Assembly (NCBI GenBank): GCA_963667805.1
Contig: OY764016.1
Span: 2,077,381 to 2,141,380, forward strand
DNA from: Candidatus Poribacteria bacterium
GTDB lineage: Bacteria; Poribacteria; WGA-4E; WGA-3G
Reading direction: 5' to 3'
Length of the DNA: 64,000 nucleotides
This document shows positions 1,680-38,800 of the stretch, piece after piece (position 1 is the first letter of the stretch; every line of letters starts with the position of its first letter). The translations under genes and the position numbers were made by a program. The notes under the pieces were generated by a model that had not been told where the DNA came from, did no database searches, and worked only from the letters and a program-made list of their open reading frames with translations.

Positions 1680-1701
1680 AGAAATCCTCGTTCAACAGTG
1701 C

Positions 1702-1965
1702 CTAAGCACCAGGGTTCCGCCAGATAATGCGGCCACGCGTCAGGTCATACGGAGAAAGTTCAAGGGTAACCTGGTCGCCGGGAAGCACCCAAATCTTGTG
1801 TTGCATCAGCTTACCAGCGAGGTATGCCACAACTTTGTGGTCGTTTTCTTCTAATTTCACCTGAAATAGGTTCCCGGGTAGGGATTCCATAACAGTTCCG
1901 AAGACGCGAATCGCTGCATCTTTAGTGGCTTCACGGGTTTTGGTCGTCGCATTTTCATTTTTCAT
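1702..1965 (-). CDS. infA: Translation initiation factor IF-1
   Basis: GTVMESLPGNLFQV...GDQVTLELSPYDLTRGRII is the IF-1 signature. Confidence 0.95.
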   Translation of the reverse strand: MKNENATTKTREATKDAAIRVFGTVMESLPGNLFQVKLEENDHKVVAYLAGKLMQHKIWVLPGDQVTLELSPYDLTRGRIIWRNPGA

Positions 1966-2052
1966 TTTCTATTCTCCTCTTTTTTTTATCACTGTTTGTT
2001 ACCTTTAACACTTTATTGGATGCACTTTATTAACGAATTGTTCGGAAAAAAG

Positions 2053-2081
2053 TTGACATCCAGCCCGAAAAGTTGTAAAAT
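2053..2081 (+). promoter_or_regulatory. sigma70-type promoter of phyH-eamA
   Basis: TTGACA (2053-2058), 17-nt spacer, TAAAAT (2076-2081), about 50 nt upstream of the ATG at 2132. Confidence 0.75.
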
Positions 2082-2131
2082 ACACGCGTAGGAGATTCCA
2101 TTTTGAGTTTTTTATAAAAGGAGAAAAAACA

Positions 2132-2935: not shown

Positions 2936-2985
2936 TCCCAAATTTTTCAGCGCCCAATGACCTCCACCGAGGATAACAGCTTCCC

Positions 2986-3906
2986 TTGAATAGAAAAGCA
3001 ACCATCGGGACACCGCCAACACCGAGCGTTATCAGCGAGGAGCCGCACGGGAAAATTATTGCCCTCAGTCTGCTCCTCGCGTTTCTTTGGGGCGGGAATT
3101 CGCCTTCCATCAAGATCGGCTTGGCAGATTTCCCTCCAATGGCACTGGCGTTCCTCCGTTTCGTGATTGGGCTTGTCGTTATTGGGGGGTGGGCACTCTA
3201 TCGCGGTGTCTCACTTCGTTTGCGCAAGGGTGAACTCCCTCGATTGCTGTTGCTGACAACGATTTTCATCCTCCAAATCATCTGCCTAAACACCGGCACC
3301 CTATTCACGACCGCCTCCCGATCCACCATTTTTATTAACGTCTATCCCTTTTTCACGGCGCTCTTTGCGCATTTCTGGATTCCCGGCGAACGTCTCTCCG
3401 TTCCAAAGACCTTGGGAATCGTTGTCGCTTTCAGTGGTGTCTTCGTAACCGTTGCCCCGAACCTCGGCGAAGGCGAAACGAGCGTCCTCGGTGACCTCGT
3501 CGTGCTTGTGAGTGGATGTTTTTTAGGACTCCGCGTTGTCGTGACGAAACTGCTCATCCAGTCGATCCATCCGTATCGCCTCTTGGCGTGGCTGCTCACC
3601 TTGAGTCTCCCGTGCTATGTCACCATGAGTTTAGTTTTTGAGCGTGGACTGCCGATGCAACTGACACTCAGGAGTAGTGCGGCTTTACTCTATCAAGGCG
3701 GTGTTATCGCGGGTTTCTGTTTTTTAGCGTGGACTGCGGTGCTTGAAAGGTATAGTGCGAGTAAACTCGTTGTGCTTTTTTTCGCAACGCCACTGTCGGG
3801 AGTTGTGTTTAGCTACGTGTTTTTAGGCGACGAGTTGACGCTTAGCTTATTGGTGGGTGCCGTTCTCGTAGCCGCTGGGATTTATCTGGTGAATATGCGG
3901 CGTTGA
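2986..3906 (+). CDS. DMT superfamily EamA-type transporter
   Basis: About 10 hydrophobic helices in two repeats; LWGGN, P..LAFLRF, PGERL, LGDELT motifs. Confidence 0.85.
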   Translation: MNRKATIGTPPTPSVISEEPHGKIIALSLLLAFLWGGNSPSIKIGLADFPPMALAFLRFVIGLVVIGGWALYRGVSLRLRKGELPRLLLLTTIFILQIICLNTGTLFTTASRSTIFINVYPFFTALFAHFWIPGERLSVPKTLGIVVAFSGVFVTVAPNLGEGETSVLGDLVVLVSGCFLGLRVVVTKLLIQSIHPYRLLAWLLTLSLPCYVTMSLVFERGLPMQLTLRSSAALLYQGGVIAGFCFLAWTAVLERYSASKLVVLFFATPLSGVVFSYVFLGDELTLSLLVGAVLVAAGIYLVNMRR

Positions 3907-3934
3907 TACCGACACATCGATTTCACTTTTTTAT

Positions 3935-4717
3935 TTACTGCTTTTCAAGCAAGCGTTCTATTTCCAGTCTGTATGCGGAGTCGGGGGCGTCCTTGAGATG
4001 TTGCGCAAAGACGCTCTGTGCGGCGGCTTTATCTCCGAATTCCAAATACACTTTACCAAGTCCATACAAGACTTCGGCAGTGTAAACACGACTGGACGTT
4101 CTCTGTTTGATGGTCTCGATCCGTTGCTTCAATTGTGCAAACGTCTGTCGTGCGGCGGCTTTATCCCCGAGTTGCAAATACACTTTACCAAGTCCAAACA
4201 GGGCTTCCGCGGTGTCATCAACAAAGCCGAGGGAGGTTTTCGCGGGGAAGTCCCCGTCAAGACGATTATGCCTGAGTATCTCAAGGAGTGTTTCAAATTT
4301 TGCCCGGGCTTCTTCATAGCGTTCCTGCTTGAAAAGGATGTAACCCCAGAGATAAAGCGGCTCTGTCTGATTCAAAGGGAGTATCGCCGTTTGGTAACTC
4401 TCTTTAACGGCTGCCTCGGCTTTGAGATAGGGGGAAACATCACCTTCCGTTTCTGCCAACTTCGCATAGCAAAAAGCAATACCGTAATTTAACAGTGTAA
4501 GGAATTCGACATTAATGATCTTTGTATCATCCGGGAAGTGAGGGAACTTTTTCGCAGCCGCCTCGTACTTAGCAATCGCTGCGCGATATTTACCCTCATA
4601 TCGCAGCCACTCGGCATCGTACACATCCTTATATAAATTCGGTTGTCTACATCCGGGCAGCCCCGTCATCAGAATACCCACAAGACTTATGCCAAATATC
4701 TTTATCCGAAGGGACAT
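3935..4717 (-). CDS. TPR-repeat lipoprotein (paralogue of 8095-8985)
   Basis: Start moved to MSLRIKIFG (4717, AAGGAG RBS). Lipobox-like LPG-C. TPR consensus ALFGLGKVYLQLGDKAAARQTF occurs twice; YLWGYILFKQERYEEARAKF. Confidence 0.75.
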   Translation of the reverse strand: MSLRIKIFGISLVGILMTGLPGCRQPNLYKDVYDAEWLRYEGKYRAAIAKYEAAAKKFPHFPDDTKIINVEFLTLLNYGIAFCYAKLAETEGDVSPYLKAEAAVKESYQTAILPLNQTEPLYLWGYILFKQERYEEARAKFETLLEILRHNRLDGDFPAKTSLGFVDDTAEALFGLGKVYLQLGDKAAARQTFAQLKQRIETIKQRTSSRVYTAEVLYGLGKVYLEFGDKAAAQSVFAQHLKDAPDSAYRLEIERLLEKQ

Positions 4718-13541: not shown

Positions 13542-15623
13542 CTACTCGAAGGCATTTGCGACCGCGACTAAATCAAGGACGTTTACTGTGCCATCCCCAT
13601 TAATGTCCGGGGTCTCTTCACCAAAAGCATTTGCCACGGCAACCAAATCGAGAATATTCACAACACCATCTTCGTTCACATCCGCTGTGGGAGGGGTTTC
13701 TAACCCCGATTTCAGATAAATCTCACCATCTAAATCTGGGAGCGTATGCCAGCGTTTGTTTTTAACACCGCTTGCCCAGCCGCTGCCCGCCTCCGGCAAT
13801 TGGATATTCTGTTCCTTGCCACTCCGGTTATAGACCGCCCAACCATTGGTGAATTCACGGATAAATAACCCCGCTTGATTTTCATACAGTTGTGCCTTTT
13901 CACCGATGGGATAACCGAGATCAGCATCCCAAAAATCATACCAGATGTGAGCGTGATGCGGAAAATCTGTTCGTCCCGTTTTAAAGAGGATATAGCCATC
14001 GGAATGCGTCAGGCACATCGTCGTAAATACTCGCATCCAGCGTTTGTTCGTCTGGCTATCTGGGGGTTCGGTACCGATCGCTTCACCTTCAACACAGTTA
14101 ATCTGAGGTGACCGTAGATTGGCTTCCGACCAAGACAGTGTATCTTCTATCTCCTGAAGCCCTTTATAGGTATAACCTCCTGGATAATCCTTATTGAGTT
14201 CCATAAACGTGCCATTCACATATGCTTTGTGTCTTGGTAGTTTCGTGCGGTTAGCATTGACAAGGATCAGAAAATCTTCACGCACGCGTTCTCGCGCACC
14301 TTCTAAGACCTTGGCGTGCGCTTCAATGAGCTCTGGTGCGGATGCCGTCTCGTTGTAATCGTATCCCGCGCCTTGGTTAAAGAACCCGTCAACAAAAATG
14401 CCGTCATACAGTCCACATTCAGCGATGCCAACAATCCGATTGACGAGCAATTCCTGCACTTCGGGTAGAAGGATGTTGAAATTGTATTCAGGCCAGTCTA
14501 CAGTATTCCACTGCACGCTTCCATCAGCTTCCCGAACCCAAAAGTCGGAATCCGGTGGGAACGCATCAAAATCAGGATGGTTATGGAATTGGATTCCCCT
14601 TAAAGACACCAGATTCGGATTCAAAGCGAGTCGTTGTTGACGGATACGTTGTGAGTGCTCCAAGTCTCCAATCAACCAAGTTGAGAGTCCATGCCAGGGT
14701 TCTGGCCATCGTACCCGGAAAGTTGGACTGAAATGTAGGTCGTGCTTGGAAATTCGTTCTGTGTGAAGAGGTTCGTCGAAAATATAGCCGGATGTATTAT
14801 ATTCCTCCGTGGATCCAATGAGCGGATCAAATCCCTGAACAACGGATGGAAAAGTTCTATTTTTAATGCGTTCAATGAGAGGTGGAGGCAGTGGTAGAAT
14901 TTCACAAATTTCATCGTATTGAAAGTCTGTGAGATTCTTTAGTTTTAAAAGTGGTGTGAAATCTCTAATCTGATTGCGTCTAAGGTCCAATACCCGAAGA
15001 TTTTCAAGATGCACAAGCGGAGACACATCCGTAACTTTACACCGCGCAAGTTCCAGCGATTCTAAATTCGTGAGACTTGACAGGGGTCTTAAATCACTGA
15101 GCGGATTATCTCTCAAGTTTATATCCCTCAGGTCTGACAGCACCGCCAATGGTGATATATCGGAGATTTGGTTGTGTTGTAAATCCAATTTCCTCAGAAA
15201 TGTCAGTGCGGAGAGTGGTGATAAATCAGAGATATGGTTGCTCCCCAAATCCAGACCCACAAGGGATGTTAGAGAAGCCAATGGTGATAAATCTGGATCT
15301 GAGAGGTTGGTAGTACCTAAACCCAAGTGTGTCAATTGCATCAACCCCTCCAGTGGACCGATGTTCTTTATGGGGTTATCGGCTAAATCGAGCTCCGTCA
15401 GACGGACGGCAAATTCTAAGCCTTGGATATTTACAATGCCCTTGTCTATCGCATGCAATCTCGTCAATAGGGTCATGTGCTTCTGGGTAAACGGCGGGGG
15501 AATTCCAAGTTCTTCTTGTATTGCTCGCTGTAAGTTAGTATCAGGGATATGAACGACTTGCGCAAAGCCGATCGACACCGTCAGCAGAAATACTATAAGG
15601 CTACATAGAAATCGTCTTAACAT
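13542..15623 (-). CDS. Secreted LRR protein with putative glycoside-hydrolase-like TIM-barrel domain and C-terminal dockerin-like repeats
   Basis: Start moved to MLRRFLCSL. Signal peptide; IPDTNL cap; LxxLxLxxNxIxDxxPL repeats; GLYDGIFVDG, VNGTFME, LFIREFTNGWAVYNRSG domain; ADVNEDGVVNILDL and DINGDGTVNVLDL. Confidence 0.8.
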   Translation of the reverse strand: MLRRFLCSLIVFLLTVSIGFAQVVHIPDTNLQRAIQEELGIPPPFTQKHMTLLTRLHAIDKGIVNIQGLEFAVRLTELDLADNPIKNIGPLEGLMQLTHLGLGTTNLSDPDLSPLASLTSLVGLDLGSNHISDLSPLSALTFLRKLDLQHNQISDISPLAVLSDLRDINLRDNPLSDLRPLSSLTNLESLELARCKVTDVSPLVHLENLRVLDLRRNQIRDFTPLLKLKNLTDFQYDEICEILPLPPPLIERIKNRTFPSVVQGFDPLIGSTEEYNTSGYIFDEPLHTERISKHDLHFSPTFRVRWPEPWHGLSTWLIGDLEHSQRIRQQRLALNPNLVSLRGIQFHNHPDFDAFPPDSDFWVREADGSVQWNTVDWPEYNFNILLPEVQELLVNRIVGIAECGLYDGIFVDGFFNQGAGYDYNETASAPELIEAHAKVLEGARERVREDFLILVNANRTKLPRHKAYVNGTFMELNKDYPGGYTYKGLQEIEDTLSWSEANLRSPQINCVEGEAIGTEPPDSQTNKRWMRVFTTMCLTHSDGYILFKTGRTDFPHHAHIWYDFWDADLGYPIGEKAQLYENQAGLFIREFTNGWAVYNRSGKEQNIQLPEAGSGWASGVKNKRWHTLPDLDGEIYLKSGLETPPTADVNEDGVVNILDLVAVANAFGEETPDINGDGTVNVLDLVAVANAFE

Positions 15624-15895
15624 AACAGGACTGCTTGTCACGATTCTTTTTCTCCTATAGATTGTTAACGCTTCAATCTGTATGATGTTAGACGAAGTAG
15701 GTGTCAGTAAACTATTGCGGTAGACCCCATCCATTTGGATAGGTCACAAATAGATTCAATTATCTGACTCCGATTCCTCAAACCCTTCTGTCGTTTACAT
15801 TACCTAAAGTCCTATTCGACCTCGTTGTCAAAGGACCACAAAATCATGCCCTCTTCTCCAGAGTTCCCAGTCATGGGTATTGCGCCTTCCCACGT

Positions 15896-23534: not shown

Positions 23535-26500
23535 TTACTTCCGTATTAGCATTTTTCGTGTTGCTGTGAAATCACCCGTTGTGAGCGTGTAGAAATAGAT
23601 GCCACTGGCAACGCGTTCACCGACAGCGTTTCTGCCATCCCAATATGCCACACGACTCCGACCCGTATAGTAACCTTCACGTTGATGCCCAAGATCCAAA
23701 CGCCGGACGATGCTGCCGCGTGCGTCATAGATGGTAATCCGCACATCACTGGGGTTCGCCAAGTGATACGGTATCCACGTCTCTGGGTTGAATGGGTTCG
23801 GATAATTCGGAAGCAGTGTTGTTTTCTCTGGAATTAGCAACGCTAAGAGGCGTTGAAGGTTGGCAACCCCCTGTTGGAAGGCGATGGAACCATCATCTTC
23901 AACTTGTGCCTGCGCTATCCATGCGCGTATCATCTCAGGATTCAGTTCCCCTACATCCTGCATAGCCAGGAGAATAGGCGAAGCTGCAGTCGTTGACTCA
24001 CCCATGTATTGTGCCACAACGATGAGGTCTAAAATGCTGACAACCCCATCATTGTTCACATCAACGTTGGAGTTAGCGGATGCTTTTTCGCCAAAATGTC
24101 GTGCCACCAGAATCAGGTCCAGAACGCTTACCTGTCCGTCTGCATTCACATCCCATTTCGGTCCGGACGCTACAGTGATGATAAAATCACGCACGCCAGC
24201 AGGAATGATTTCACCAGCACTGGAACCCAATTGAAAGCTTCGTAGTGCCATCTGACTGTTTCCATCTGCTTTCGCGGAGAAGACCACCGACAAGAGTGTT
24301 CCCGTGCCAGCGATGCCACTTTCCGAAATCAGTGCCGCACTTAAGCCTGTGATTTTACCCGTAGCATTATCGATCGTGCCTCGCTGAAAGAAGGTCGTTC
24401 CCCCATCCTTCTTCAGAAAATCACCCTCGTTCACTTTAACCACTTCAAGTACATCGGGATCAAACGTGAGATCAAATTGCCATCCTGATAAATCCGCAAC
24501 CTTTTCAACGTTGACGTGGACGGTAAAAGTATCCCCGACGCGAACACTTGAGGTATCTGTCGAAAACGCGAAGCCGGTTCCAGGGGATATCACCATATAC
24601 TCCGCATCAGCGGCAAACCCAAATAAGCCAGTCCAGTGACCCCAGTGATTATCAACAGCAACTAACAATACATTTACCCCTGCTTTTAAAGTTACAGGGA
24701 CCAACCACTTGTAATCAACAGCTGCTGGCCGCCACTGCCGTCCGATGACTTGGTGAACTGACTGTCCGTTGAGCCACACTTTGACAGAATCGTCGGTTCC
24801 GATAAACATTTTTACCTGCTGCTCTCGCTGAGAATACAAGCGAATCGAACCATAAACGTTATACGTCTCAATAAACCCATCCACACGCTCAACGTCTCCC
24901 CAGCCAAGCGAGTCCACCAATTCGTGAATATTGTCCTCACGAGCAGAAAGTCTGTGGGAAGTCCACACGCTGCTTCCGACAGGGGTTCCTTCGGTAGCAC
25001 CATTAGTAGCAACTTCCAGTTCCGTCACAGTGCCACCACTCGCGTGTGCAAGCAGATCTCTATTGTCGTCTTGAAAGTTTTCTCCTGGAAGCATGACCCA
25101 TAGCCAGGGTCCCTCTATTTTCGGTCCACCCTGTGAAAATCCTGGATTCTCATACCAAAGGACTTTCGCCTTTGTCCGTATCACATCCAAAGGTGATATA
25201 TCCGATATATTGTTTCGCTGAATTTCCAGTCTCTCTAAGTTAGTCAAAGCTGCAAGGGCCGATACGTCTGATATGTTGTTGCCCGATAGGTTTAGCCCTT
25301 TTAAATTGCGCAAAGCGGCAAGTGGTGAAATATCTTGTATATTGCGGTTGTCAAACAGTGCTAAACTTTCTAAGTTAATCAACCCAGCGAGCGGAGATAT
25401 ATCTGACACGCCACTACGCGCAATGGATAGTTCTCTCAAACCTGTTAGTCCTTTCAAAGGGGTAAGATTCGGGCTCTCTGCATAGAGTACCTTCAGAGTT
25501 TCCAGATTCGCTAATCCCGCGAGTGGCGACAGGTCGGATATTGGGTTATGCACGAGTTCCAAATACCTCAGTTTTGTTAATCCCGCGAGTGGCGAGAGAT
25601 CTGATATAGAAGTGTTTGAGACCTCTATTCTCTCCAAGTTGATTAATTCCGTAAGTGGCAATAGGTCAGGGGTCAATTCACCCCCAATTTCCACTTCTTT
25701 TAACGCTGTAAATTTGATAGGACAGATAAATCCGATATAACATTGTCGCTAAGCCGGATTCTGTGCAGGTTAATTAAGCCTGCTATCGGTGAAAGGTCGG
25801 AGATATTATTATTATTGATAATCAAATAAGTTAAGTTGGTCGCTAACTCAAGTCCTGCCAGATTCTCGATATCCCTGTGATGTGCATCCAGTCCCTCTAA
25901 TCCTTCCATCTCCTCAACAGTAATTGAGGCATCTGGTGCTTTTCCAAGTGTTTCTGTAATTATGATACGGAGGTTGGCATCCGGAATGTAAACAGAAGTT
26001 CCAGGGATGCGTTCCGTCCTCGGAACGATCGGCTTACTTACCGTGCTATCAGGAGAACTCAGCATCGCAACTATATCATTGAAATTCGATGTCCAGGTAT
26101 CCCTTTTCACACTCCCACTCGCACCTGTTAGCACTCCCAAACCTAAGTTTTTCAGACTCGCATTCTCGCGAACCTTTTGGAGAAGAGCCGCCATTTCTAA
26201 CCCTACCGAGGCAGCCGCATGCGCCGCATCAAGCGGTCTTTGAAACGCCTCATGGAACCGTTGAACAGGCTCAACGCCACCGAAGACATCTCCTGTTTTT
26301 TCGAGTGCCTGCCGGTAACGAGCGGTATCCTCTGCTAAGAACGCGTCCATCTCCGCCTTCCCTACATAGAGTCGTAACGCCCGATCTTTGCTAAAGGGTG
26401 GATTCGGATTCTGTTCAACGACACCCCGCACTTCATCTTCAAATACCTTCATACCCTCTGTATGACATCCGATGCAGGAGAGACCATTCCGGACGGTTGG

Positions 26501-27688
26501 ATCGCTCGCAGCGGGGTTTCGGACAATTTTTATCGGTGCCGCGTCCAGCCGGTTGCCGCCAGCATCCACCAAATAGTATGCCTGTAACCCGTTCGGCAGG
26601 TTAAAAATGATCTCGCCGCCGTCGTGTTCAAAAGAGAGCGGATGCGTAAAAACATTCTGCGTCCCCACGCTCCCAGCGAAGTCGTAACTCTTCCAATACG
26701 CCCCATACCGTGAAGTATGGCGTTCCACAACGCGGTTATGGTTTGAAACACCGGAATCGTTGAAACCTGCACGCCAGACGCGCTTTCCCGGAGCGTTACG
26801 GATATTTTCGACGACATTTACCTCAAGTCTTGCTTCTAACTCCCAGTCGGTTTCTGGAAGGGCCAGAATGTCGTGATACAAAGGTGGCAAGGCGGCTGTT
26901 GCGATGAACCAATCTATATGAACGAATGGCACTTCACAGTCCATTGCCTCACGCAGGTTTGTGAATCTCTCACGCAGTGCCGTTTGCGTTGGTGCGCTGA
27001 ATTCCACTTTATACGGATATTCCGCCTCAATCAGCGTCCACCGATTCGTTCCGATTTCCCATTCATAATCGCGGAGGTCAATGTAGAAGATTGTTTCTTC
27101 CAAATCAATAGGCTGGGGTTTGATGACCTCGCGTCCCCAAGAGAGACTATTTACGAGTTTCGAGAGTGCTCGTTGATAGGCATGGAGGGCTTCGGAACTC
27201 TCACCGGCGTTATAGAGATGTGTGAGTGTAAAATAACGCGCAAAGGGACGATCAAACGGGGAAAGTGAGTTGACGTGCTTTTCAATGCTCGCAAGCATTT
27301 CCGTAGGTGTAATAAAGTCGGTGTCTCGTTCTGGTGTCTGCCAATCTGGTGCGCCTGCTTGGATCCAATTACCAATCGTCAGAATCGCGGCGGGAGGCAG
27401 GCGCGGTTGACCTAACGGCATCCGTTTTGCTTCATCCTCTGTAAAGAGCCGCTTATAGAGTTCGGATTCAATCGGTTTCCCCGGAACAACTGCCCCAGTT
27501 TCTATGAGTGCGGTGTGCTGAATAATTAGATTTTCGGTGTACGCACCATGTTCACCATGACAGTTGAGACAATTCTGTTGGAAAATAGCATACGCTTGCC
27601 GGGCGAGATTCCCCTGTGCATCAGCACTTCTGGAACCTAAAACGACAAGCCCTAAGCCAATTAGAAGGATGTATTTTTTTATTTTCAT
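23535..27688 (-). pseudogene. Diheme cytochrome/LRR/cohesin/dockerin/CTD protein (paralogue B), split by a 1-nt frameshift near 25707
   Basis: ORFs 25700-27688 and 23535-25694 join into one paralogue-A-like protein. Span 4154 nt is one base short of a codon multiple. Restoring an A in TTA[A]CAGCG gives LSNLTALKEVEIGGE, matching LSGLTTLKEIRLSGE in paralogue A. Confidence 0.85.
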
Positions 27689-27801: not shown

Positions 27802-30717
27802 CTATTCCAAGTGTGTAAGTTTCAATCCAGAGAGTGGTGTGAAATCTTTTATCGGGTTTCCTCTAATCCGCAATTGCCGAAGTTCCTTCAAACCCGCTAA
27901 TGGACGCAGGTCAGAAATGTCGTTATGTGACAGATGCAAGATTTCAAGTTTTTTCAACCGCGCCAATGGGCTTATATCCGAAACCTTGCTATTCTCCAGC
28001 GTGAGGTCCTCTAAATTGATGAGATTCGCTAACGGACGCAGATCAAGGGTGGGTGTGTTTGGAAAGATATCTGAGAGATATAAAGCTTTAAGCGTCGTTA
28101 AGTTGGTAAGTGGGCGGAGGTCTGTTATCGGATTGTCCCTAAGGTCGAGTTCCCTAAGATTCGTCGCAAACTCCAAACCCGTGAGGTCAAAAATCCCCTT
28201 ACCCGCAACATCGATGTCACCGACCGCTTGCATTCGCTCTTTTGTCAGCGGAACATCAGGCAACAGCCCGATTTCACCGCGAACAGCGGTCCGTAATGCT
28301 GGGTCGGGCATCCATGCCTCAGCCAGATCTGTTTGTCCTGTTGTCTGTCCGATAACATCGTATTTCAGGTTTGTCAGGTTCAATCCAGAGAGTGGTGTGA
28401 AATCCTTTACCGGATTCCCTTTGAGCAACAATGTCCGTAGTTCCGTCAGCCCTGATAGGGGTCGGATGTCGGAAATGCCACTATTTAAAAGATCCAAGGT
28501 TTGAAGTTCTTTCAACGCCGCTAACGGACTTATATCCGAAACCTTTATCGGATTGTTAGAAATGTTGAGGTCTGTAAGATTCAATCCAGAGAGTGGCGTC
28601 AAATCTCTTATTGGATTTCTCTCAAGCCACAATTGCCGCAGTTCCGTCAGCCCCGCAAGTGGATGCACATCCTCAATTTGATTATTCGAGAGATGCAAGC
28701 GGCGAAGTTTCTTTAACCCCATCAGCGGACGGATATCCGAAATCCAGTTTCCCTCCAAGGACAGCATCTCTAAGTTAATGAGAGTCGCCAACGGACGCAG
28801 ATCCAGATCTGTCGGACGGACAGGGACGTGCCAGAGATGTAGCCCCACGAGTTGTGTCAAATTCGACAGTGGACGTAAGTCTGTTATCGGATTCTGGCCC
28901 AAGTATAATTCCCTAAGATTCGTTGCGAACTCCAATCCTGTGATGTCCAAGATGCCTTTGTCACGCGCATAGAGGTAGTCCAAACCCAGCATCTTTTCTT
29001 TTCTCAAGGGGATGTCGGGTAGCAGTCCGATTTCACCGCGAATCACCGCACGCAACGCGGGGTCGGGCATCCACGCCTCGGAAGGCCGTGTTTGCGCTGC
29101 TGGGTCCGATACAGCATCGTATTTCAACTCTGTGAGATTCAATGCCGACAGCGGTCTGAAATCTTTTGCTGGGTTCCCTTTGAGCAACAATATCCGCAGT
29201 TCTGTCAGTCCTGTCAGCGGACTTAAGTCTCCAACGCTATTGTCTGTAAGGATGAGTTCCGTTAGGTTTTCCAAACCTGTAAGCGGAACAATATTTTCAA
29301 CTCTGTTGTCAAAAAGGTCTAATACCTCTAAACTTTTCAGATTCGCAAGCGGACTTAGATCGCTGACACGATTGTCAGCCAAATTTAGGTAGGTCAGGGA
29401 AGTCAACGACCGCAGTGGCGATACATCGGTCACTTGATTATTCCAGAGACTTAACCCGATTAGGTTCGTTAGGGTGGTGAGAGGTCTCAGATCTGTTACT
29501 TGGTTAGCGCCCATATTGAGATGCCTCAAAGTGGTGAGCGTCGTGAGAGGACTTAAGTCGATAACATAATTACCCGCGTCTCCTAAATGTAAATGCACTA
29601 AATTTTGAGCGAATTCTAAACCCGTTATATCGGCAATACCTCTTCCCTCGGCGATTAGACGCTCCAATCCTTGTATATCCTCCTTCGTCAACGGCACCGT
29701 TTCAGGCAGTCCGAGTTCCTCTCGAATCGCCGTACGCAATGCGGGGTCGGGCATCCAGTGGGTCTGCGTATCTTCTGGATGCACAGGCGCAATGGACGTT
29801 GAAACGCTTTTGGAAACCTGTAATCCGTTACCGATGGTATTCTCAACGGGCACGACGGCACGTCCACTTTGATTGCGGAGTGCCGGTTTCGCGTCGGTCT
29901 CTAAGACAATAGACACGTCCACGATTTCAATGGTCGGTTCAGATTTTGCCTCGAAACTATAGGGTCTCTGAAAACGGGTGAGATGTTGGTTGCTGAGTCC
30001 GATCAAAAATAGAATCAGGACCGCAGCGGCACCAAACGCCGCCCATGGGAGCAACGGTTTCGTAGCCGAGGGAGGGGTCAGTTTCAAGTCAGCGACTTGC
30101 TGCATGACGTTCTGGGTTAAATTCGCTGATATCTGCACACCGCCGAGCACTTCTTGAACCAAGGCATCTTCTTTCTCCCGTAACCGTTTTCGTGCCCGAC
30201 TGAGTCGACTACTGATCGTCTTTACGGAAACGCCCAAGAACTTACTAATCTCCTTCATTGTCATTTCGCCGAGATAGAAAAGCGTCATGACGGTGCGTTC
30301 ACTCTCCGGCAGTTTTTCCAGAAGTTTTTTGACGACTTCACGCCGGCGTTCCTCGGCTTCTGCTTCGCGGTGCTCCGATAGATAGTGAGTATAGGAGAGC
30401 TTTTCTACTTCATCCACGCGTGTGTCCTCCAGCGATTGCGTCGCAAATTTTTGTTTTCGCAGCCAATTCAGGCAACGTCGATTCGCGATGACATAGAGCC
30501 ATCCGGCAAATTGATGGAAATCTTTGAGCGTCGGGAGTTTTTTATAGACTTGGAGGAAGGTGTCTTGCGTAATCTCTTCAGCATAATGAAAATCGCCGAT
30601 CTTGCGCCATACAAGCGCATGAACGCTTTTTTGGTACTTTTCGACCAAGATGCTGAACGCTACATCATCCCCTGATAAAATTCTCTGTATCAATTGAACA
30701 TCGTCTTCTCTTGCCAT
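27802..30717 (-). CDS. ECF-type sigma factor fused to a TM helix and three extracytoplasmic LRR modules
   Basis: Region 2 (AEEITQDTFLQVYKKL, FAGWLYVIANR) and region 4 (LPESERTVMTLFYLGEMTMKEISKFLGVSVKTISSRLSRARKRL); TM PWAAFGAAAVLILFLIGL; three WMPDPALR-capped LRR blocks. Confidence 0.88.
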   Translation of the reverse strand: MAREDDVQLIQRILSGDDVAFSILVEKYQKSVHALVWRKIGDFHYAEEITQDTFLQVYKKLPTLKDFHQFAGWLYVIANRRCLNWLRKQKFATQSLEDTRVDEVEKLSYTHYLSEHREAEAEERRREVVKKLLEKLPESERTVMTLFYLGEMTMKEISKFLGVSVKTISSRLSRARKRLREKEDALVQEVLGGVQISANLTQNVMQQVADLKLTPPSATKPLLPWAAFGAAAVLILFLIGLSNQHLTRFQRPYSFEAKSEPTIEIVDVSIVLETDAKPALRNQSGRAVVPVENTIGNGLQVSKSVSTSIAPVHPEDTQTHWMPDPALRTAIREELGLPETVPLTKEDIQGLERLIAEGRGIADITGLEFAQNLVHLHLGDAGNYVIDLSPLTTLTTLRHLNMGANQVTDLRPLTTLTNLIGLSLWNNQVTDVSPLRSLTSLTYLNLADNRVSDLSPLANLKSLEVLDLFDNRVENIVPLTGLENLTELILTDNSVGDLSPLTGLTELRILLLKGNPAKDFRPLSALNLTELKYDAVSDPAAQTRPSEAWMPDPALRAVIRGEIGLLPDIPLRKEKMLGLDYLYARDKGILDITGLEFATNLRELYLGQNPITDLRPLSNLTQLVGLHLWHVPVRPTDLDLRPLATLINLEMLSLEGNWISDIRPLMGLKKLRRLHLSNNQIEDVHPLAGLTELRQLWLERNPIRDLTPLSGLNLTDLNISNNPIKVSDISPLAALKELQTLDLLNSGISDIRPLSGLTELRTLLLKGNPVKDFTPLSGLNLTNLKYDVIGQTTGQTDLAEAWMPDPALRTAVRGEIGLLPDVPLTKERMQAVGDIDVAGKGIFDLTGLEFATNLRELDLRDNPITDLRPLTNLTTLKALYLSDIFPNTPTLDLRPLANLINLEDLTLENSKVSDISPLARLKKLEILHLSHNDISDLRPLAGLKELRQLRIRGNPIKDFTPLSGLKLTHLE

Positions 30718-30905
30718 CAGGATTCTCCATGATTCATGAACAGGTTTCGCAGCCTTGAACGTCCCTTCGCGCTGTTTTCATTTGGAAGGATCGCGTTGCC
30801 AGGATCTGTAAGCAGGTGTCGTCTATGTGCTGAATTTGCATACAATTGTAGCACGTAGAATTCAAAGACTGCACCATTTAATGTGGGCCCTCATCTTCCC
30901 TGTTG

Positions 30906-30939
30906 TTAAAGACACAATTTTTTGTCAAAAGTCTGCACC
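30906..30939 (-). promoter_or_regulatory. Conserved motif upstream of ECF gene 27802-30717 (putative ECF promoter or operator)
   Basis: Minus strand TGCAGAC-TTTTG-ACA-AAAAATTGTGTCTTTAA; the last 17 nt are identical to 38921-38937. Confidence 0.6.
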
Positions 30940-31106
30940 AATTTAACACAAGTCGCTATTTTTAAAGAATACGGAATAGCATTCATACCTCTCAAACGCG
31001 CCATTAAAGATAGAAAGGGCAGAAACCCTCTAATTTCCACCCTCCTTTTTTATAACCGCGTCAACGCGCTTCTACTTACAGTTTGTATCAAATGACCCCA
31101 TGATCG

Positions 31107-31129
31107 CTATAGACATATTGCTCCGCTGG
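31107..31129 (-). repeat. CAGCGG...TCTATAG small dispersed repeat
   Basis: ccagcggagcaatatgtctatag; related copies at 57502-57525 (+) and 52513-52536 (-). Confidence 0.55.
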
Positions 31130-31171
31130 AGCAAAGAGATTTCTTGATGCCTAAGGGCGTGGTGTGTTTTT

Positions 31172-31242
31172 CTAGGAGCGAGCTGGGCTCGCGAGTGTTT
31201 TCGGGCATAAGTCAGGGGTCGCGAGTAAAACTCGCTCCTACA
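31172..31242. repeat. Inverted doublet of GTAG-family REP sequences (REPIN-like)
   Basis: TAGGAGCGAGCTGGGCTCGCGA faces the reverse complement GTAGGAGCGAGTTTTACTCGCGA; each is a short palindrome preceded by (G)TAG. Confidence 0.7.
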
Positions 31243-31402
31243 AGGAGGTTTGGTTTTGACCAAATGTTTACACACCCTGTCGACTGAGGGACAGCTGACG
31301 CTCAATGAGGTTCAAAAAGCTGCCTCAATTTAACCCGCTCATCAGCGATGATTGGGAAGCTAATGAACATCAGCGTCCCAACTCTCCTATGGTCATCTGA
31401 TA

Positions 31403-34400
31403 TTATTTCAAAATCAGCATCTTCCGCGTAGCAGAGAAATCTCCGGCTGTGAGTGTATAGAAATAAACACCACTGGCAACGCGTTCACCGACAGTGTTTC
31501 TGCCGTCCCAATAGGCGGCGTGACTCTGACTCGTGTAGTAACCTTCACGTTGATGTCCGAGATCCAAATGCCGGATGACGGTACCGCGTGCGTCATAGAT
31601 GGTAATCCGCACATCACTGGGGTTCGCCAAATGATACGGTATCCATGTCTCTGGATTGAACGGATTCGGATAGTTAGGCAGTAGTGCCGTCTCTTTTGGC
31701 ACCAACGAGGCTAAGAGGCGTTGAAGGTTCGCAATGCCCGCTTGGAAGACAAGAGAGCCGTCATCCTCAACTTGTGCCTGCTCTATCCATGCCTGTATTA
31801 TCGCAGGATCCAATCCTTCTATACTGTCCACAGATAGCATCGAAGGGGCAGCTAAGCCGTTTGATCCACCCATATTCTGGGAAACAAGAATGAGATCCAA
31901 GATGTTCACAATTCCGTCGCCATTTAGGTCAACATCCGAGTTGGCGGGGACGGTTTTTCCAAGGTGGCGAGCCACAAGCACCATATCCAGAATGCTTACC
32001 TGACCATCTCGATTCACATCCCCGGTCGTCTGTTCTCCCTTTACAGTAATGACGACCTCATGCGGTCCTGCATCTATGGGCTTACCGGTGATAGCAGCGA
32101 GTTGAAAGTTATCGAGTCTCAATTGTGTTCGTCCAGCTGTTTTTGCTGTAAATGTCACCGACAACAGCGTGCCTGTGCCGCTAACCCCATCTTCACCGAG
32201 TCGCGCTGAACTCAGACCTTTAATCTTACCCGCTCTATTATCAATCGTCCCTCTCTGGAAGAAGGTCGCTCCACCCCCTGTTTTCAGGAAATCGCCTTCG
32301 TTGACTTCAACGGCTTCAAGTATTTTTGGATCATAAGCGATATCAAATTGCCATCCCGCTAAATTGTAGATATCCTCTGCCCTAATTTCAAGCGTGAAGG
32401 TATCGCCAGCATCGATGATAGGTTGCGAAAAGGCGTATTCGACACGCGGGTTTAACACGGTATATTCTGCCTCAGGGTTAAACCCCCAAAAACCGTTCCC
32501 GCCCGTTCTTGTGGCAACTAATAAGACATTCACGCCCTCTTTGAGCGTAACAGGAACGAAATGTTGGTAATCTTCACCGCGTGCGCCTTTAAGTTTCTCA
32601 TGGACCAAAACACCGTTAAGCCACGCTTTACCACCACCGTCATTCCCAGCAAACAGCGTTACCTCTTGTTGTCGCGGTGAATACAGGACGACACATCCAT
32701 AGATAACGCCGGGCACAAAAGGTCCTGCTAACGCCTCCGCCGTTAACACCGTCTCAATGTTATTCCGCCCTGTAGGTGATATTGTGCCGGAATACCAGAC
32801 GCTATTTCCAACAGGGTTGCCTTCAGTCGCGCCATGGGTTGAAACCTTTACTTCTGTCACCGCGCCACCACTCGCTTCTGCGAGAACATCTAAATTTGCG
32901 AGAAGATCATCATTAGGATTCTCCAGCTTCCCCAGAACAGCACTTCTAATATCTGGCTCTGGCACCAGCACCCATAACCAAGGACCCTCTATTTTGGGAC
33001 CGCCTTCCGGGAAACCTGGATTGGTGTGATTAATGATCGTTACATCCTCGCTGAATCCATCTAAAGGCGAAAAGTCGGATATCTCATTTCCGCCAATATG
33101 CAACCATGTCAGGTTCTTTAACTTTGTAAGGGGCGATATATCCGATATGTTATTTTCTGAAAGTTCCAGCCACTTCAAGCCGGTTAACGTCGCTAAGGGC
33201 GATATATCCGATACGGGGTTGCCTGCAACACCTAAGCGCGTTAACCCTGTCAATTTCGCCAAGGGAGAGACATCCGATACCCCGCCTCCGAGAAGATAGA
33301 GTTCTTTCAAATTTTTTGCGCCTTCCAGGGTGGATACATCAGGCTCTCCACCACAAATATCTATGACCTCGAGTTCTACGAGTGGCGACAGGTCGGACAC
33401 AGGATTGCCCCAAGAATCAAACCGCTTCAAGTTCGGCAATCCCGCCAGAGGTGAGAGATCCGATATATTGTTATGACTCACCTTTACGTGCCTAAGATTT
33501 GTTAATCCCGCCAGAGGCGATAAGTCACTTATTTCATTGGCACTGATATCCAAAAGATCCAGTTTTGTTAATCCCGCCAGCGGAGATAGGTCAGATATTT
33601 GGTTGCTCTCAATTTTTAACCATTCCAAATTTGTTGCAAACTCAAGTCCCGTCAAATCGCGGATGCCCATTTCTTCAGGAGAAATCCGATGTAACCACGT
33701 CATATCTTCCACTGTGATTGGGGCATTTGGTGTTTTTCCAAGATTTTCTTCAATGAACGCACGCAAATTCGGGTCGGGGATGTGGACAGATGCCCCAGGG
33801 ATACGTTCCGTCTGCGGGTCGACCGAAATCGCTACATCCGGGAAATCCAAGGCAAACACGATTTCACTAAACTTCGATGTCCATGTATCTCTTTTCATTG
33901 TGCCATTTTCTAAGACTAATACCCCTAAACTTTTCAAATTCGCGGAGGCACGAATCTTTTGGAGGAACACCTCGGTTTGCAACCCAACGGCGGCAGCGGC
34001 ATACGCCGCATCCACCGGTCTCTGAAACGCCTCGTGGAATCGATGAACGGGTTCAATTCCTCCAAAGACATCGCCGGTCGCTTTCAGGGCTTGTTTGTAG
34101 CGTTCGGTATCCTCCGCCAAGAGTCCCGCCATCGTGGTTTTGTCCGTATAGAGTTGCAACGCCCGGTCTTTGTTAAAGGGTGGATTCGGGTTCTTCTGAA
34201 CAACGTCCCGGACCTGATCTTCAAAATCCTTCATCCCCTCGGTATGGCAACCGATACAGGAGAGTCCGTTGCGGACGGTCGGATCACTCGCAGCCGGGTT
34301 TGAGACGATGTCTATAGGTGCTGCGTCAAGCCGTCTACCGCCGGCATCAGCGAGATAGTATGCCTGTAAGCCGTTAGGAAGATTGAAAATGTTTTCGCCC

Positions 34401-35467
34401 CCGTCGTGTGTGAAAGACAAGGGATGTGTAAAGATGTTCTGGGCCCCTACACTCCCCGCAAAGTCGTAGCTTTTCCAATACGCACCATACCGAGAGATAT
34501 GGCGTTCCACGACGCGATTGTGATTCGATACACCCGAATCGCTGAATCCCGCACGCCAGACGCGTTTTCCCGCGGCGTTCCGAAGATTTTCAACAACATT
34601 CACCTCAAGCCGTTCCTCTAATTCCCGATCAGTTTCCGGAAGATTCAAAATGTCGTGGTAGAGGGGCGGTAAGGAAGCATTCGCAAGGAACCAATCCACA
34701 TGAATAAACGGCACTTCACAGTCCATTGCTTCCCGCAAACTCGTTAGTTTTTCACGTAGATTTGTCTGTGTCGGGGCATTGAACTCAACGCTATACGGAT
34801 ACACCTGTTCAATCTGTGTCCATCTATTGGTTCCGATCTCCCATTCGTAGTCCCGGAGGTCAATATAGAAAATCGTTTCTTCTGGGTCAATAGGCTGTGG
34901 TCTGATCACCTCGCGTCCCCAAGAGAGGCTATTCACGAGTTTCGAGAGTGCGCGTTGATAGGCATGCAATGCCTCAGCTGTCTCACCGGCGTTATAGAGA
35001 TGGGTGAGTGTGAAATAGCGTGCGAAGGTGCGGTCGAACGGAGAAAGCGAGTTGACGTGCTTTTCAATGGTATCCAGCATCCGCTTGGGCGTGATGAAGG
35101 TGCCATCTGTCGCAGAGGTGCCTTCCCAATTCGGCGCGCCGGCTTGGATCCAGTTGCCGATTGTCAGAATCGCCGCGGGTGGCAGTTGCGGTTGACCGAG
35201 TGGCATCCGTTTCGCTGGATCATTTGTGAGGAGTCGTTTATAGAGTTCAGATTCTATCGGTTTCCCTGGAACGACTGCTCCTGTTTGGAGGAGTGCTGTG
35301 TGATCAATGATGATTTCTTCAGTAAATGCGCCGTGTTCTCCATGGCAGTCGAGGCAACTTTGCTCAAAAATCGCATACGCCTGCTGCGCGAGGTTCTGTT
35401 GTGCATTAGCACTCTGATATCCCAAGATAAATGTGAATACAAGACTAATTTTGATGAAATTCTTCAT
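31403..35467 (-). CDS. Diheme cytochrome/LRR/PA14-like/cohesin/dockerin/CTD protein (paralogue C)
   Basis: Start moved to MKNFIKISL (AAGGGAG RBS); CLDCH and CIGCH; same domain order as paralogue A. Confidence 0.85.
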   Translation of the reverse strand: MKNFIKISLVFTFILGYQSANAQQNLAQQAYAIFEQSCLDCHGEHGAFTEEIIIDHTALLQTGAVVPGKPIESELYKRLLTNDPAKRMPLGQPQLPPAAILTIGNWIQAGAPNWEGTSATDGTFITPKRMLDTIEKHVNSLSPFDRTFARYFTLTHLYNAGETAEALHAYQRALSKLVNSLSWGREVIRPQPIDPEETIFYIDLRDYEWEIGTNRWTQIEQVYPYSVEFNAPTQTNLREKLTSLREAMDCEVPFIHVDWFLANASLPPLYHDILNLPETDRELEERLEVNVVENLRNAAGKRVWRAGFSDSGVSNHNRVVERHISRYGAYWKSYDFAGSVGAQNIFTHPLSFTHDGGENIFNLPNGLQAYYLADAGGRRLDAAPIDIVSNPAASDPTVRNGLSCIGCHTEGMKDFEDQVRDVVQKNPNPPFNKDRALQLYTDKTTMAGLLAEDTERYKQALKATGDVFGGIEPVHRFHEAFQRPVDAAYAAAAVGLQTEVFLQKIRASANLKSLGVLVLENGTMKRDTWTSKFSEIVFALDFPDVAISVDPQTERIPGASVHIPDPNLRAFIEENLGKTPNAPITVEDMTWLHRISPEEMGIRDLTGLEFATNLEWLKIESNQISDLSPLAGLTKLDLLDISANEISDLSPLAGLTNLRHVKVSHNNISDLSPLAGLPNLKRFDSWGNPVSDLSPLVELEVIDICGGEPDVSTLEGAKNLKELYLLGGGVSDVSPLAKLTGLTRLGVAGNPVSDISPLATLTGLKWLELSENNISDISPLTKLKNLTWLHIGGNEISDFSPLDGFSEDVTIINHTNPGFPEGGPKIEGPWLWVLVPEPDIRSAVLGKLENPNDDLLANLDVLAEASGGAVTEVKVSTHGATEGNPVGNSVWYSGTISPTGRNNIETVLTAEALAGPFVPGVIYGCVVLYSPRQQEVTLFAGNDGGGKAWLNGVLVHEKLKGARGEDYQHFVPVTLKEGVNVLLVATRTGGNGFWGFNPEAEYTVLNPRVEYAFSQPIIDAGDTFTLEIRAEDIYNLAGWQFDIAYDPKILEAVEVNEGDFLKTGGGATFFQRGTIDNRAGKIKGLSSARLGEDGVSGTGTLLSVTFTAKTAGRTQLRLDNFQLAAITGKPIDAGPHEVVITVKGEQTTGDVNRDGQVSILDMVLVARHLGKTVPANSDVDLNGDGIVNILDLILVSQNMGGSNGLAAPSMLSVDSIEGLDPAIIQAWIEQAQVEDDGSLVFQAGIANLQRLLASLVPKETALLPNYPNPFNPETWIPYHLANPSDVRITIYDARGTVIRHLDLGHQREGYYTSQSHAAYWDGRNTVGERVASGVYFYTLTAGDFSATRKMLILK

Positions 35468-35583
35468 GTATCTCTTTCTCCCTTCTTGAAAGAGTGAGCT
35501 GGACTCGAGATGCCCTTTGGCTGTCGTTGGACTGTCCAGTTTAAAATTCGGGTTGTTCGTAGCGGTGCAATTCACGCGCCCTG

Positions 35584-35607
35584 GTGGAAGCGATACATCG
35601 CTTCTAC
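35584..35607. repeat. REP-like palindrome
   Basis: GTGGAAGCGAT-AC-ATCGCTTCTAC. Confidence 0.55.
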
Positions 35608-35623
35608 GAACCCTACGGATGCC

Positions 35624-36025
35624 TTAATCCGTCAAGACCTTCCAGAGCCAGAGCACTGCTCCCAGCGATACGCCCCAGCCTATTGCTGACCTCTCTATCC
35701 GTTGGTTCTTGATGGAGCGTTTGTATTCATCAGTATAGGTGTGAACGTATGTAGAAGACTTGCCTAACAGTCGATGACTTGGAACTGTCGGGTTATTTAC
35801 GCTTGCATAGACGATAGCAAACATCCAGCACCCTGCCCCATAAGCGAACCAACGCAAGCCTGCGTCGTGCCATGCATCGCGTCTGGCATCTTCTTGCGCG
35901 TGTTGGATGAGTTGGGCGATCGGATCGTGTGGCTCTGTCATCGCTTCTACTGGGAGTATGTGCATAGGGACGCTGATCAGTATAAGGATTATCATTATTG
36001 TGATGCATCTGAAAATGAGGTTCAT
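35624..36025 (-). CDS. Short member of the PERLLGKS membrane-protein family (copy 6)
   Basis: Signal-like N-terminus; AQEDARRDA..WFAYG; PSHRLLGKSSTYVHTYT. Confidence 0.65.
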   Translation of the reverse strand: MNLIFRCITIMIILILISVPMHILPVEAMTEPHDPIAQLIQHAQEDARRDAWHDAGLRWFAYGAGCWMFAIVYASVNNPTVPSHRLLGKSSTYVHTYTDEYKRSIKNQRIERSAIGWGVSLGAVLWLWKVLTD

Positions 36026-36118
36026 AGGTTCTCCTTCATACCTAAGGCATTTGCGATATTGACGAGATCAAACAACATTGATAACATCAGCGCCGTTGAG
36101 ACCGGCAGATGTGGCTAT

Positions 36119-38800: not shown

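Follow-up and report, generated by a model that had tools for sequence, protein, structure and literature searches.

Two genes in a 64-kb stretch of a Poribacteria chromosome each encode, in a single polypeptide, an extracytoplasmic function (ECF) sigma factor, one transmembrane (TM) helix, and a large extracytoplasmic sensor domain, and they prove to be members of an expanded family that shares one type of promoter. The stretch, C1:2077381-2141380 of the closed 5.51-Mb genome (48.4% G+C) of an uncultured, sponge-associated Candidatus Poribacteria bacterium, is called the window here, and all positions are in the numbering of this 64-kb window unless a genome position (C1) or locus number (L) is given. 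A first-pass annotation of this DNA had described the two proteins, which we call P1 and P2 (Table 1), as one-component transmembrane ECF sigma factors, and had proposed that the sigma factor is held at the membrane and released by regulated proteolysis when the sensor binds a host or glycan ligand. With the sigma factor, the TM helix, and the extracytoplasmic domain in one open reading frame (ORF), and with no anti-sigma gene next to it, both are indeed of this one-component kind; for release of the sigma factor we argue more cautiously below.

Sigma regions 2 and 4, reported at that time for both proteins, are recovered by Pfam (Sigma70_r2 at residues 24-90; Sigma70_r4_2 at residues 128-181 of P1 and 130-181 of P2). 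The scores with the TIGR02937 (sigma70-ECF) model are 99.3 bits for P1 and 94.2 bits for P2, against a cut-off of 42.9; having both regions and scoring above the family cut-off, the two proteins belong to the ECF (group 4) sigma factors. The closest equivalog-type NCBIfam matches are SigW and RpoE (104-107 bits, under their equivalog cut-offs). We modeled residues 1-320 of P1 (26-sequence alignment) and the ectodomain of P2 (39-sequence alignment) with AlphaFold2 (AF2). The best structural matches of the sigma part of the P1 model are SigW/RsiW, AlgU/MucA, and sigmaE/RseA, and CnrH/CnrY (4cxf) is also among them.

The first-pass annotation had considered only these two proteins and thereby understated the scale of the family: when its paralogue count was carried out, with the P1 sigma core as phmmer query against every ORF of the genome, P1 and P2 turned out to be 2 of 36. 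The paralogues score 177 to 412 bits, while ordinary ECFs score at most 92 bits. In 26 of the 36, one TM helix at about residues 220-250 is followed by the sequence QYLxRFQKPYSFEAxSEPTIEIxDxPIVLxxxxKPxVRNQxG. Among these TM members, BNR/sortilin-type propellers are the most frequent ectodomains (14 by Pfam, 16 by sequence similarity); LRR (leucine-rich repeat) modules, with or without a GHL15 domain, are found in four (P1, P2, L009, and L017), a WD40 propeller (L003), a Kelch domain (L032), and a thioredoxin-like AhpC/TSA domain in one each, and unrecognised folds in three. The other 10 members lack a TM helix and carry cytoplasmic modules, including AhpC/TSA, methyltransferase, Peptidase_M61_N, and a DnaN clamp. 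The last of these is an unusual sigma-clamp fusion: the 577-aa ORF L025:1-1734 (C1:3690727-3692460, minus strand) joins the ECF sigma core to a complete DnaN, with the N-terminal, central, and C-terminal DNA_pol3_beta domains at residues 210-573 and no TM helix.

The two proteins have, as had been claimed, a single TM segment, seen as one hydrophobic stretch in each (residues 222-240 of P1 and 224-242 of P2; Kyte-Doolittle values of 2.29 and 1.98), and the sequence quoted by the first-pass annotation as a conserved linker matches exactly (FQRPYSFEAKSEPTIEIVDVSIVLETDAKPALRNQSG in P1, FQKPYSFEAESEPTVEIIDAPIVLETDAKPSVRNQSG in P2). Alignment of the 26 TM paralogues and a search of sequence clusters agree that the juxtamembrane motif is both conserved and specific to the family. 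Its invariant residues among the 26 are, in P1 numbering, F249, Q250, P252, Y253, K277, Q283, and G285, and conservation extends across 149 representative clusters. The TM helix itself is constrained at its cytoplasmic end, where P221, P224, and W225 of P1 are invariant, and it contains a conserved Gly. The topology check suggested earlier gave a charge bias that fits one TM helix with the sigma factor inside and the sensor outside; the mean net charge of the 26 is +0.85 in the 20 residues preceding the helix and -2.35 in the 20 following it. The ectodomain types also recur in proteins of the same genome that have signal peptides, dockerins, or type IX secretion system (T9SS) tails. In the AF2 model of P1 the sigma domains are confident, a TM helix spans residues 225-249, and residues 253-320 are unstructured. 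The model also places a short helix, conserved in the family, at residues 199-209 on the cytoplasmic side; residues 201-210 have a mean predicted local distance difference test score (pLDDT) of 86, compared to 61-68 for the flanking blocks, and this helix is a candidate for a minimal anti-sigma or tether element.

The C-terminal sensors are likewise as described before: by Pfam (LRR_4, GHL15), P1 has three LRR modules, and P2 has an LRR module followed by a glycosidase-like barrel. LRR_4 matches P1 in 11 stretches (E 9.5e-75), LRR_EndoS is also matched, and each of the modules starts with WMPDPALR, at residues 321, 549, and 802. P1 and P2 are 56% identical across the first 475 residues. Beyond these, the GHL15 match of P2 (residues 584-851) scores 43.8 bits compared to a Pfam gathering cut-off of 27; the AF2 model of the barrel is of low confidence, and a comparison of the GHL15 part with PDB sequences gave only marginal GH114 matches (E about 0.1).

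The absence of a separate anti-sigma gene also holds, since Pfam anti-sigma domains are missing from the neighboring ORFs. This is not the rule for the genome; a zf-HC2 gene lies immediately beside six of its ordinary ECFs and beside none of the 36 family members, and all zf-HC2 matches in the genome are neighbors of ordinary ECFs. Within P1 and P2, Pfam searches with E values up to 0.01 found no anti-sigma family, FecR included, and there is no Cys or His in residues 183-222 of either protein, ruling out a zinc motif in that region.

How have so many ectodomains come to be attached to one kind of sigma factor? A maximum-likelihood tree of the sigma cores mixes the module classes, requiring 14 label changes where the minimum possible is 3, and well-supported branches alone require at least 5 changes for the propeller class. 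Because the tree interleaves the classes in this way, we read it as meaning that the sigma chassis has been conserved while its C-terminal modules were exchanged. The segment comprising linker, TM helix, and motif (P1 residues 185-300) is rare, matching only 245 of 1.84 billion representative clusters, and most of the 245 matches lie at residues of about 184-290 in proteins 500-1280 residues long, right behind the sigma factor. The segment is present in 103 of 121 genomes of the phylum, with counts reaching 37 or more copies in this genus and its sister genus and 1-4 copies in other families of the order; none was found in the sampled genomes of the other orders and classes of the phylum. Database relatives of the family exceed 7000. 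For P2, orthologues make up 120 clusters among the matches listed, with 69-93% identity over the barrel (residues 480-893), and most of these are full-length fusions of the same domains.

We looked for a stand-alone anti-sigma protein ancestral to the linker-TM-motif module and found none among the matches checked; most matches lie directly behind a sigma factor, and the two exceptions that we checked are explained otherwise. One is a split gene, with overlapping sigma and ectodomain ORFs, on a long-read contig of 4.57x coverage; the other, L054, is derived by a deletion that spared the first 11 sigma codons. Further matches of the segment start closer to the N terminus, many in short proteins. 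In L054 (positions 1446-4170 of an ENA metagenome contig), a 34-aa ORF retaining these first codons (MKNEDAELIQR) is followed by a GGAGGG ribosome-binding site and an 889-aa protein that begins at the linker (MIREAIGNF...) and continues through the TM helix and motif into WD40 repeats. About ten of the 150 representative clusters listed begin at the linker like this L054 protein. Within the genome studied here, L002, L003, and L005 (C1:252270-254075, C1:257356-260256, and C1:834854-837991) have a perfect AAGGAGG and, 5-6 nt further on, an in-frame ATG where sigma region 4 gives way to the linker (KKEEPM), and a sigma-less membrane protein may also be made from genes such as these. P2 has no start codon at this boundary, and in P1 the sole candidate, a TTG accompanied by a weak purine run, is doubtful. 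The conserved Met of the NIM motif was considered as a different internal start and rejected; a Shine-Dalgarno-like site precedes it in only 1 of the 26 paralogues.

The second feature uniting the family is its promoter. The k-mer counts of the upstream regions of family members brought out ATGCAAC and CGTCTTTAA, corresponding to a shared ECF-type promoter with TGCAC or TGTAAC at -35 and GTCTTTAA at -10. We built a weight matrix from 11 family sites and, at a threshold of at least 20 bits, found 51 sites in the genome; when the genome was reversed the matrix found 1, and when it was locally shuffled, 0. Of the 51 sites, 15 are directly upstream of family members, P1 and P2 among them. Most of the others precede genes for secreted repeat proteins (Kelch, PD40, LamG, and LRR-dockerin-T9SS), and further sites precede genes for a WD40 repeat protein, ABC-2 permeases, and a trypsin-like TPR protease. 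The P2 type of -35 element (TGTAAC) occurs at four other sites in the genome, three before large secreted LRR proteins and one before a WD40 protein. In orthologous loci the P1 promoter block is nearly invariant, with unrelated upstream sequence in some loci and indels in the leader. As expected of an ECF sigma factor, P1 and P2 each have a putative cognate promoter (AAC-like -35, CGT/GTC-like -10) before their own gene, and this motif suggests autoregulation. Judged by where the predicted sites fall, the family appears to switch on itself and neighboring secreted look-alikes of its sensor domains.

Two other observations concern these promoters. Just 3′ of the P1 promoter, a leader block with hairpin potential (GGGGAAGGTAAGGTCCCACATTAAATGG, 30850-30900, minus strand) is conserved in L045-L052; the remainder of the P1 leader carries large indels across the orthologous loci. 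Elsewhere in the genome, a 27-kb cluster (C1:5220186-5247619; L031-L034 and neighbors) has four family members, one with an unrecognised fold, one Kelch, and two BNR; interspersed among them are at least nine family-type promoters, together with ABC-2 permeases, a secreted Kelch protein, and L043, a trypsin-like TPR protease. The last (L043:1-1854, C1:5235173-5237026) is a 617-aa Trypsin_2 and TPR protein encoded behind a family-type promoter and directly upstream of the ECF paralogue L033; its product is a candidate site-1 protease for the family.

The look-alikes are often close at hand. We ran BLAST with each ectodomain against every ORF of the genome and counted as neighbors those within 8 kb; 8 of the 10 non-propeller TM members had an ectodomain paralogue encoded nearby, where at most 0.1 would be expected. 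The neighbor of L009 is an LRR-GHL15-dockerin-T9SS protein (60% identity over 608 residues), those of L017 and L010 are 42% identical over 599 residues and 55% identical over 210 residues, respectively, and the Kelch member L032 adjoins a secreted Kelch protein; L001 has three neighboring paralogues, and the neighbors of P1 and P2 are heme-LRR proteins. The LRR-GHL15 module of P2 is also found, together with a dockerin, in a secreted paralogue encoded at 13542-15734.

Alignment of the nine GHL15 domains of the genome, six secreted and three in sensors (P2, L009, and L017), may say more about what the sensors do. The Asp of the G-I-F-L-D motif is kept in all six secreted proteins; at this position there is Gly in P2 (Gly636) and L009 and Asn in L017. 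The conserved Glu of GHL15 is kept in P2 (Glu702) and lost in L009 and L017. Leaving aside the secreted paralogue at 13542-15734, 32 of the 38 aligned sequences have Gly at position 636. The GHL families were assigned to the barrels of the alpha-galactosidase superfamily, in which the end of a hydrophobic strand is a typical place for a nucleophilic Asp. By this pattern the sensor barrels appear to bind their substrate but not to turn it over, and the P2 barrel is probably an inactivated copy of the secreted GHL15 proteins. The "host or glycan ligand" of the first-pass annotation is a conjecture; given that probable origin of the barrel, a glycan is the ligand favored for P2.

Putting these pieces together, we imagine the following sequence of events. 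The ECF sigma factor faces the cytoplasm, tethered through a linker of about 40 residues and one TM helix; outside the membrane follow the conserved juxtamembrane stub (about 45 residues), then a low-complexity spacer, and last the binding ectodomain. At rest the sigma factor would be kept at the membrane. Binding of a ligand by the ectodomain, for P2 most likely the polysaccharide substrate of its secreted GHL15 paralogues, would be the trigger; the ectodomain would then be removed, or trimmed to the conserved stub, and an RseP-type site-2 protease (S2P) would next cleave within the TM helix. The released sigma factor would guide RNA polymerase to the family promoter, raising expression both of its own gene and of the secreted LRR, heme, cohesin, dockerin, and T9SS proteins encoded nearby or on the same transcript. 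Regulated release of this kind is plausible on circumstantial grounds: the genome has an RseP-type S2P (Peptidase_M50) gene, the sigma core is closest to SigW, AlgU, and sigmaE, all controlled by regulated intramembrane proteolysis, and the hybrid protein IutY, discussed below, provides a precedent. Because each of the proteolytic steps is something that we infer, we give ligand-triggered ectodomain removal, S2P cleavage, and release onto own and neighboring promoters only slightly better than an even chance.

Several points weigh against this proposal. S2P genes are nearly universal, having been found in 14 of 14 control genomes, so their presence here is uninformative. The stretch from sigma region 4 to the TM helix contains nothing recognisable as an anti-sigma domain, and tethering by itself might not inhibit the sigma factor. 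The juxtamembrane motif, which would be the element recognised for cleavage, is given no fold in either AF2 model (pLDDT below 50), and its comparison with PDB sequences gave only chance-level matches, with no solved relative. Because AF2 predicts no fold for it, the motif looks like a linear motif rather than an autoproteolytic domain. Further, single sensors may lack separate regulons, since the sigma cores are very similar and the promoter is common to them. Lastly, a catalytic role for the Asp lost from the sensor GHL15 domains is assumed.

The absence of an anti-sigma domain leads directly to the strongest alternative, that the sigma factor works without intramembrane proteolysis, either active while tethered, in the manner of ToxR or CadC, or with helix 199-209 serving as a minimal CnrY-like anti-sigma peptide that is loosened via the TM helix. 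Class II anti-sigma peptides such as CnrY are short, about the same length as the linker of roughly 40 residues. This alternative fits the lack of a canonical anti-sigma domain in Pfam searches, the one conserved and confidently modeled helix predicted within the linker, and the CnrH/CnrY match of the sigma part. It also fits the sigma-less derivatives of other metagenomes, which start exactly at the linker with their own ribosome-binding site; because they begin there, the linker, TM helix, and ectodomain behave as an autonomous anti-sigma-like unit. However, we know of no sigma factor that acts while anchored in the membrane; the conserved Pro/Pro/Trp and Gly of the TM helix and the extracytoplasmic stub would be superfluous for mere tethering, and IutY, the studied case of a single polypeptide, relies on proteolysis. 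We consider operation without proteolysis unlikely.

The pairing with secreted paralogues could be read differently as well. One can envision that the ectodomain monitors not an external ligand but the cell's own secreted paralogues, through homotypic contacts or competition for an export, folding, or anchoring partner, in a feedback on surface load. The ectodomains are paralogous to proteins encoded next door under the same promoter, and these neighbors have dockerin, cohesin, and T9SS modules, implying assembly at the surface. On the other hand, the 16 BNR/sortilin-type ectodomains are nearly without secreted counterparts (2-4 non-family matches each), and the Asp lost from the sensor barrels is better explained by substrate binding without turnover. 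Self-monitoring seems to us rather improbable.

A further alternative likens the juxtamembrane motif to the SEAL domain of RsgI, as an element that would be autoproteolytic or mechanosensitive, with a constitutive site-1 cut, fragments that stay paired, and pulling on the ligand-bound ectodomain that exposes the stub to S2P. The layout is that of RsgI, in which the TM helix is followed by a conserved juxtamembrane element and, past a low-complexity spacer, by a module that binds glycan or protein, and the regulated genes carry cohesin and dockerin modules, as do those of the cellulosome-regulating RsgIs. Yet the motif is only about 40-45 residues long and predicted to be unstructured, where SEAL is modeled with very high confidence; it has no Asn-Pro hairpin and matches no solved structure by sequence, and SEAL domains are reported to be largely confined to Firmicutes. 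We give this little credence. That the fusions are artefacts of assembly or annotation, or decaying genes without function, as the split locus at 4.57x coverage might hint, is effectively refuted by the more than 7000 relatives, the distribution within the phylum, and the mostly full-length P2 orthologues; the promoter is conserved as well, and the ORFs of P1 (starting with ATG) and P2 (starting with GTG) are unbroken in a closed genome and have good ribosome-binding sites.

At the locus itself, the minus-strand series runs P2, a 133-aa ORF, P3, P1, and then two ORFs that together form another P3 paralogue. The LRR of P3 is 45% identical to that of P2, and P3 is likely an operon partner or target of P2. 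On the minus strand no terminator-like site was found between P2, the 133-aa ORF, and P3 or between P1 and the next ORF; a terminator-like hairpin between P3 and the P1 promoter has counterparts in four orthologous loci (L045, L050, L051, and L052). Given this placement of terminators, there are likely two operons, one of P2, the 133-aa ORF (probably in the same operon as P2), and P3, and the other of P1 with the heme-LRR paralogues. The paralogue downstream of P1 is broken into ORFs of 662 and 719 aa by a TAA stop and a frame shift at 25694-25702, beside an A-rich run; the gene may have decayed to a pseudogene, or the sequence may be in error there. A PIN-domain ORF (39060-39518, minus strand; PF01850, E 1.2e-8) lies a short way upstream of the P2 promoter, followed by a 158-aa ORF with no Pfam match, and the two may be a toxin-antitoxin pair.

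Table 1. Features of the P1 and P2 region, in window positions
Feature	Position	Strand	Description and evidence
P1	27802..30717	-	971 aa; ECF sigma, TM helix, juxtamembrane motif, three LRR modules (ORF, Pfam, NCBIfam)
P1 sigma region 2, residues 24-90	30448..30648	-	PF04542, E 2.1e-13; AF2 pLDDT about 90
P1 sigma region 4, residues 128-181	30175..30336	-	PF08281, E 1e-15
P1 short cytoplasmic helix, residues 199-209 (NLTQNVMQQVA)	30091..30123	-	Predicted by AF2; conserved in family
P1 TM helix, about residues 222-244	29986..30054	-	Hydropathy; AF2 helix 225-249; charge bias
P1 juxtamembrane motif RFQRPYSFEAKSEPTIEIVDVSIVLETDAKPALRNQSG, residues 248-285	29863..29976	-	Conservation; predicted unstructured
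P1 ectodomain	27805..29757	-	LRR modules 321-545, 549-795, and 802-971, each with WMPDPALR cap; internal repeats
P1 promoter (putative) GGTGCAGAC...N...TTGTGTCTTTAAC	30902..30945	-	185 nt before ATG; weight matrix score 39.7 bits
P2	36119..38800	-	893 aa; ECF sigma, TM helix, juxtamembrane motif, LRR, GHL15-like barrel
P2 sigma regions 2 and 4, residues 24-183	38252..38731	-	PF04542, E 1.8e-14; PF08281, E 3.1e-16
P2 TM helix, about residues 224-246	38063..38131	-	Hydropathy 1.98; alignment
P2 juxtamembrane motif HFQKPYSFEAESEPTVEIIDAPIVLETDAKPSVRNQSG, residues 251-288	37937..38050	-	Alignment; pLDDT 25-30 in ectodomain model
P2 LRR module, residues 324-475	37376..37831	-	LRR_4, E 9.8e-21; pLDDT about 90
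P2 GHL15-like barrel, residues 480-893	36122..37363	-	PF14885, E 4e-11; paralogue alignment
P2 promoter (putative) GATGTAACG...N...TTGTGTCTTTAAT	38917..38960	-	117 nt before GTG; weight matrix score 38.7 bits
133-aa ORF	35624..36025	-	Directly 3′ of P2; no Pfam match
P3	31403..35575	-	1390 aa, secreted; PSCyt1 heme domain, LRR, cohesin, dockerin, T9SS tail
Terminator-like hairpin	31014..31045	-	Between P3 end and P1 promoter
Heme-LRR-cohesin-dockerin-T9SS paralogue	23535..27688	-	Directly downstream of P1; two ORFs, 25700-27688 and 23535-25694

ECF sigma factors with a fused, membrane-spanning regulatory extension are a kind already known, and four systems invite comparison. IutY of Pseudomonas putida is a sigma/anti-sigma hybrid that is freed by Prc and RseP after its periplasmic part has been trimmed to about 50 residues (PMC5411451, PMC8999054). 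Like P1 and P2, it combines in one polypeptide a cytoplasmic ECF sigma factor, one TM helix, and an extracytoplasmic sensing part, and the length of the stub is similar. However, in IutY the sigma factor is of the FecI type, the anti-sigma domain is of the FecR type, and the signal comes from a TonB-dependent outer-membrane receptor, whereas in P1 and P2 the core is SigW/RpoE-like, neither FecR nor any other anti-sigma domain is present, the proteins have ligand-binding ectodomains of their own, and paralogues number in the dozens per genome.

The actinobacterial groups ECF48, ECF52, and ECF53 have C-terminal extensions with TM helices and an extracytoplasmic part, proteolytic activation has been proposed for them, and SCO4117 of Streptomyces coelicolor carries a carbohydrate-binding domain (PMC8999054). 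Their extensions hold a zinc-finger anti-sigma domain (ZAS-like, HxxxCxxC), while the linker of P1 and P2 is without Cys or His and has no zf-HC2 match; these groups also belong to another phylum and do not show a comparable expansion or module swapping.

The SigI/RsgI systems of Clostridium thermocellum and Bacillus subtilis use paralogous membrane sensors whose extracellular modules resemble the secreted proteins that they regulate, with cleavage by RseP/RasP (PMC10328401; bioRxiv 10.1101/2023.06.27.546760). The order of TM helix, juxtamembrane element, disordered spacer, and binding module is shared with our family, as are cohesin and dockerin targets. RsgI, though, is a separate anti-sigma factor for a SigI-type sigma factor and has a folded, autoproteolytic SEAL domain with an Asn-Pro site; in P1 and P2 the sigma factor is an ECF, it is joined to the sensor in one protein, and the short motif is not predicted to fold. 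Finally, ECF57 (formerly ECF01-Gob) of Planctomycetes has long WD40-like C-terminal extensions and two conserved cysteines joining sigma regions 2 and 4, and is proposed to act via protein interaction or conformational change (PMC8999054). L003 similarly carries WD40 propellers, but the family is set apart from ECF57 as described by its one nearly invariant Cys, its defined TM helix and motif, and its many ectodomain types.

The family thus misses the defining features of the IutY type (FecR), the ECF52 type (zinc finger), and the RsgI type (SEAL fold). What is new is a chassis without a classical anti-sigma domain and with a family-specific juxtamembrane motif, the scale of dozens of copies per genome in one Poribacteria family, and, as the sequence comparisons indicate, ectodomains recruited from the secreted proteins that the shared promoter appears to drive. 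The terms "Poribacteria" and "LRR" are absent from the main text of the 2021 ECF classification of Casas-Pastor, and our literature search found no paper connecting Poribacteria with ECF sigma factors.

A broader proposal, which we put forward tentatively and would rate at not quite an even chance, is that one Poribacteria family uses a single ECF chassis as a plug-and-play receptor system. The chassis would consist of the sigma factor, the 40-residue linker with its one helix, the TM helix, and the FQxPYxF...SEPTxE...KPxxRNQ stub, with no classical anti-sigma domain; ectodomains would be recruited from the cell's own secreted "eukaryote-like" proteins, those with GHL15 probably inactivated, and all members would feed one promoter type driving those same proteins. 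If this is true, these sponge symbionts would rely mainly on this network to sense host or matrix molecules and to control their LRR, Kelch, WD40, and cohesin-dockerin surface proteins, and the stub would serve a dedicated site-1 step as a recognition element not known before.

The family also provides a natural library of one-polypeptide transmembrane sensors on one chassis, useful for studying how a sigma factor is controlled when a classical anti-sigma domain is missing; the engineering of orthogonal sensors is another possible use. For the regulation of the large sets of "eukaryote-like" repeat proteins in sponge symbionts, it gives a concrete and testable link, one that would run from the sensor ectodomain to a tethered sigma factor, from there to a defined promoter, and on to the secreted LRR, Kelch, PD40, and cohesin-dockerin proteins.

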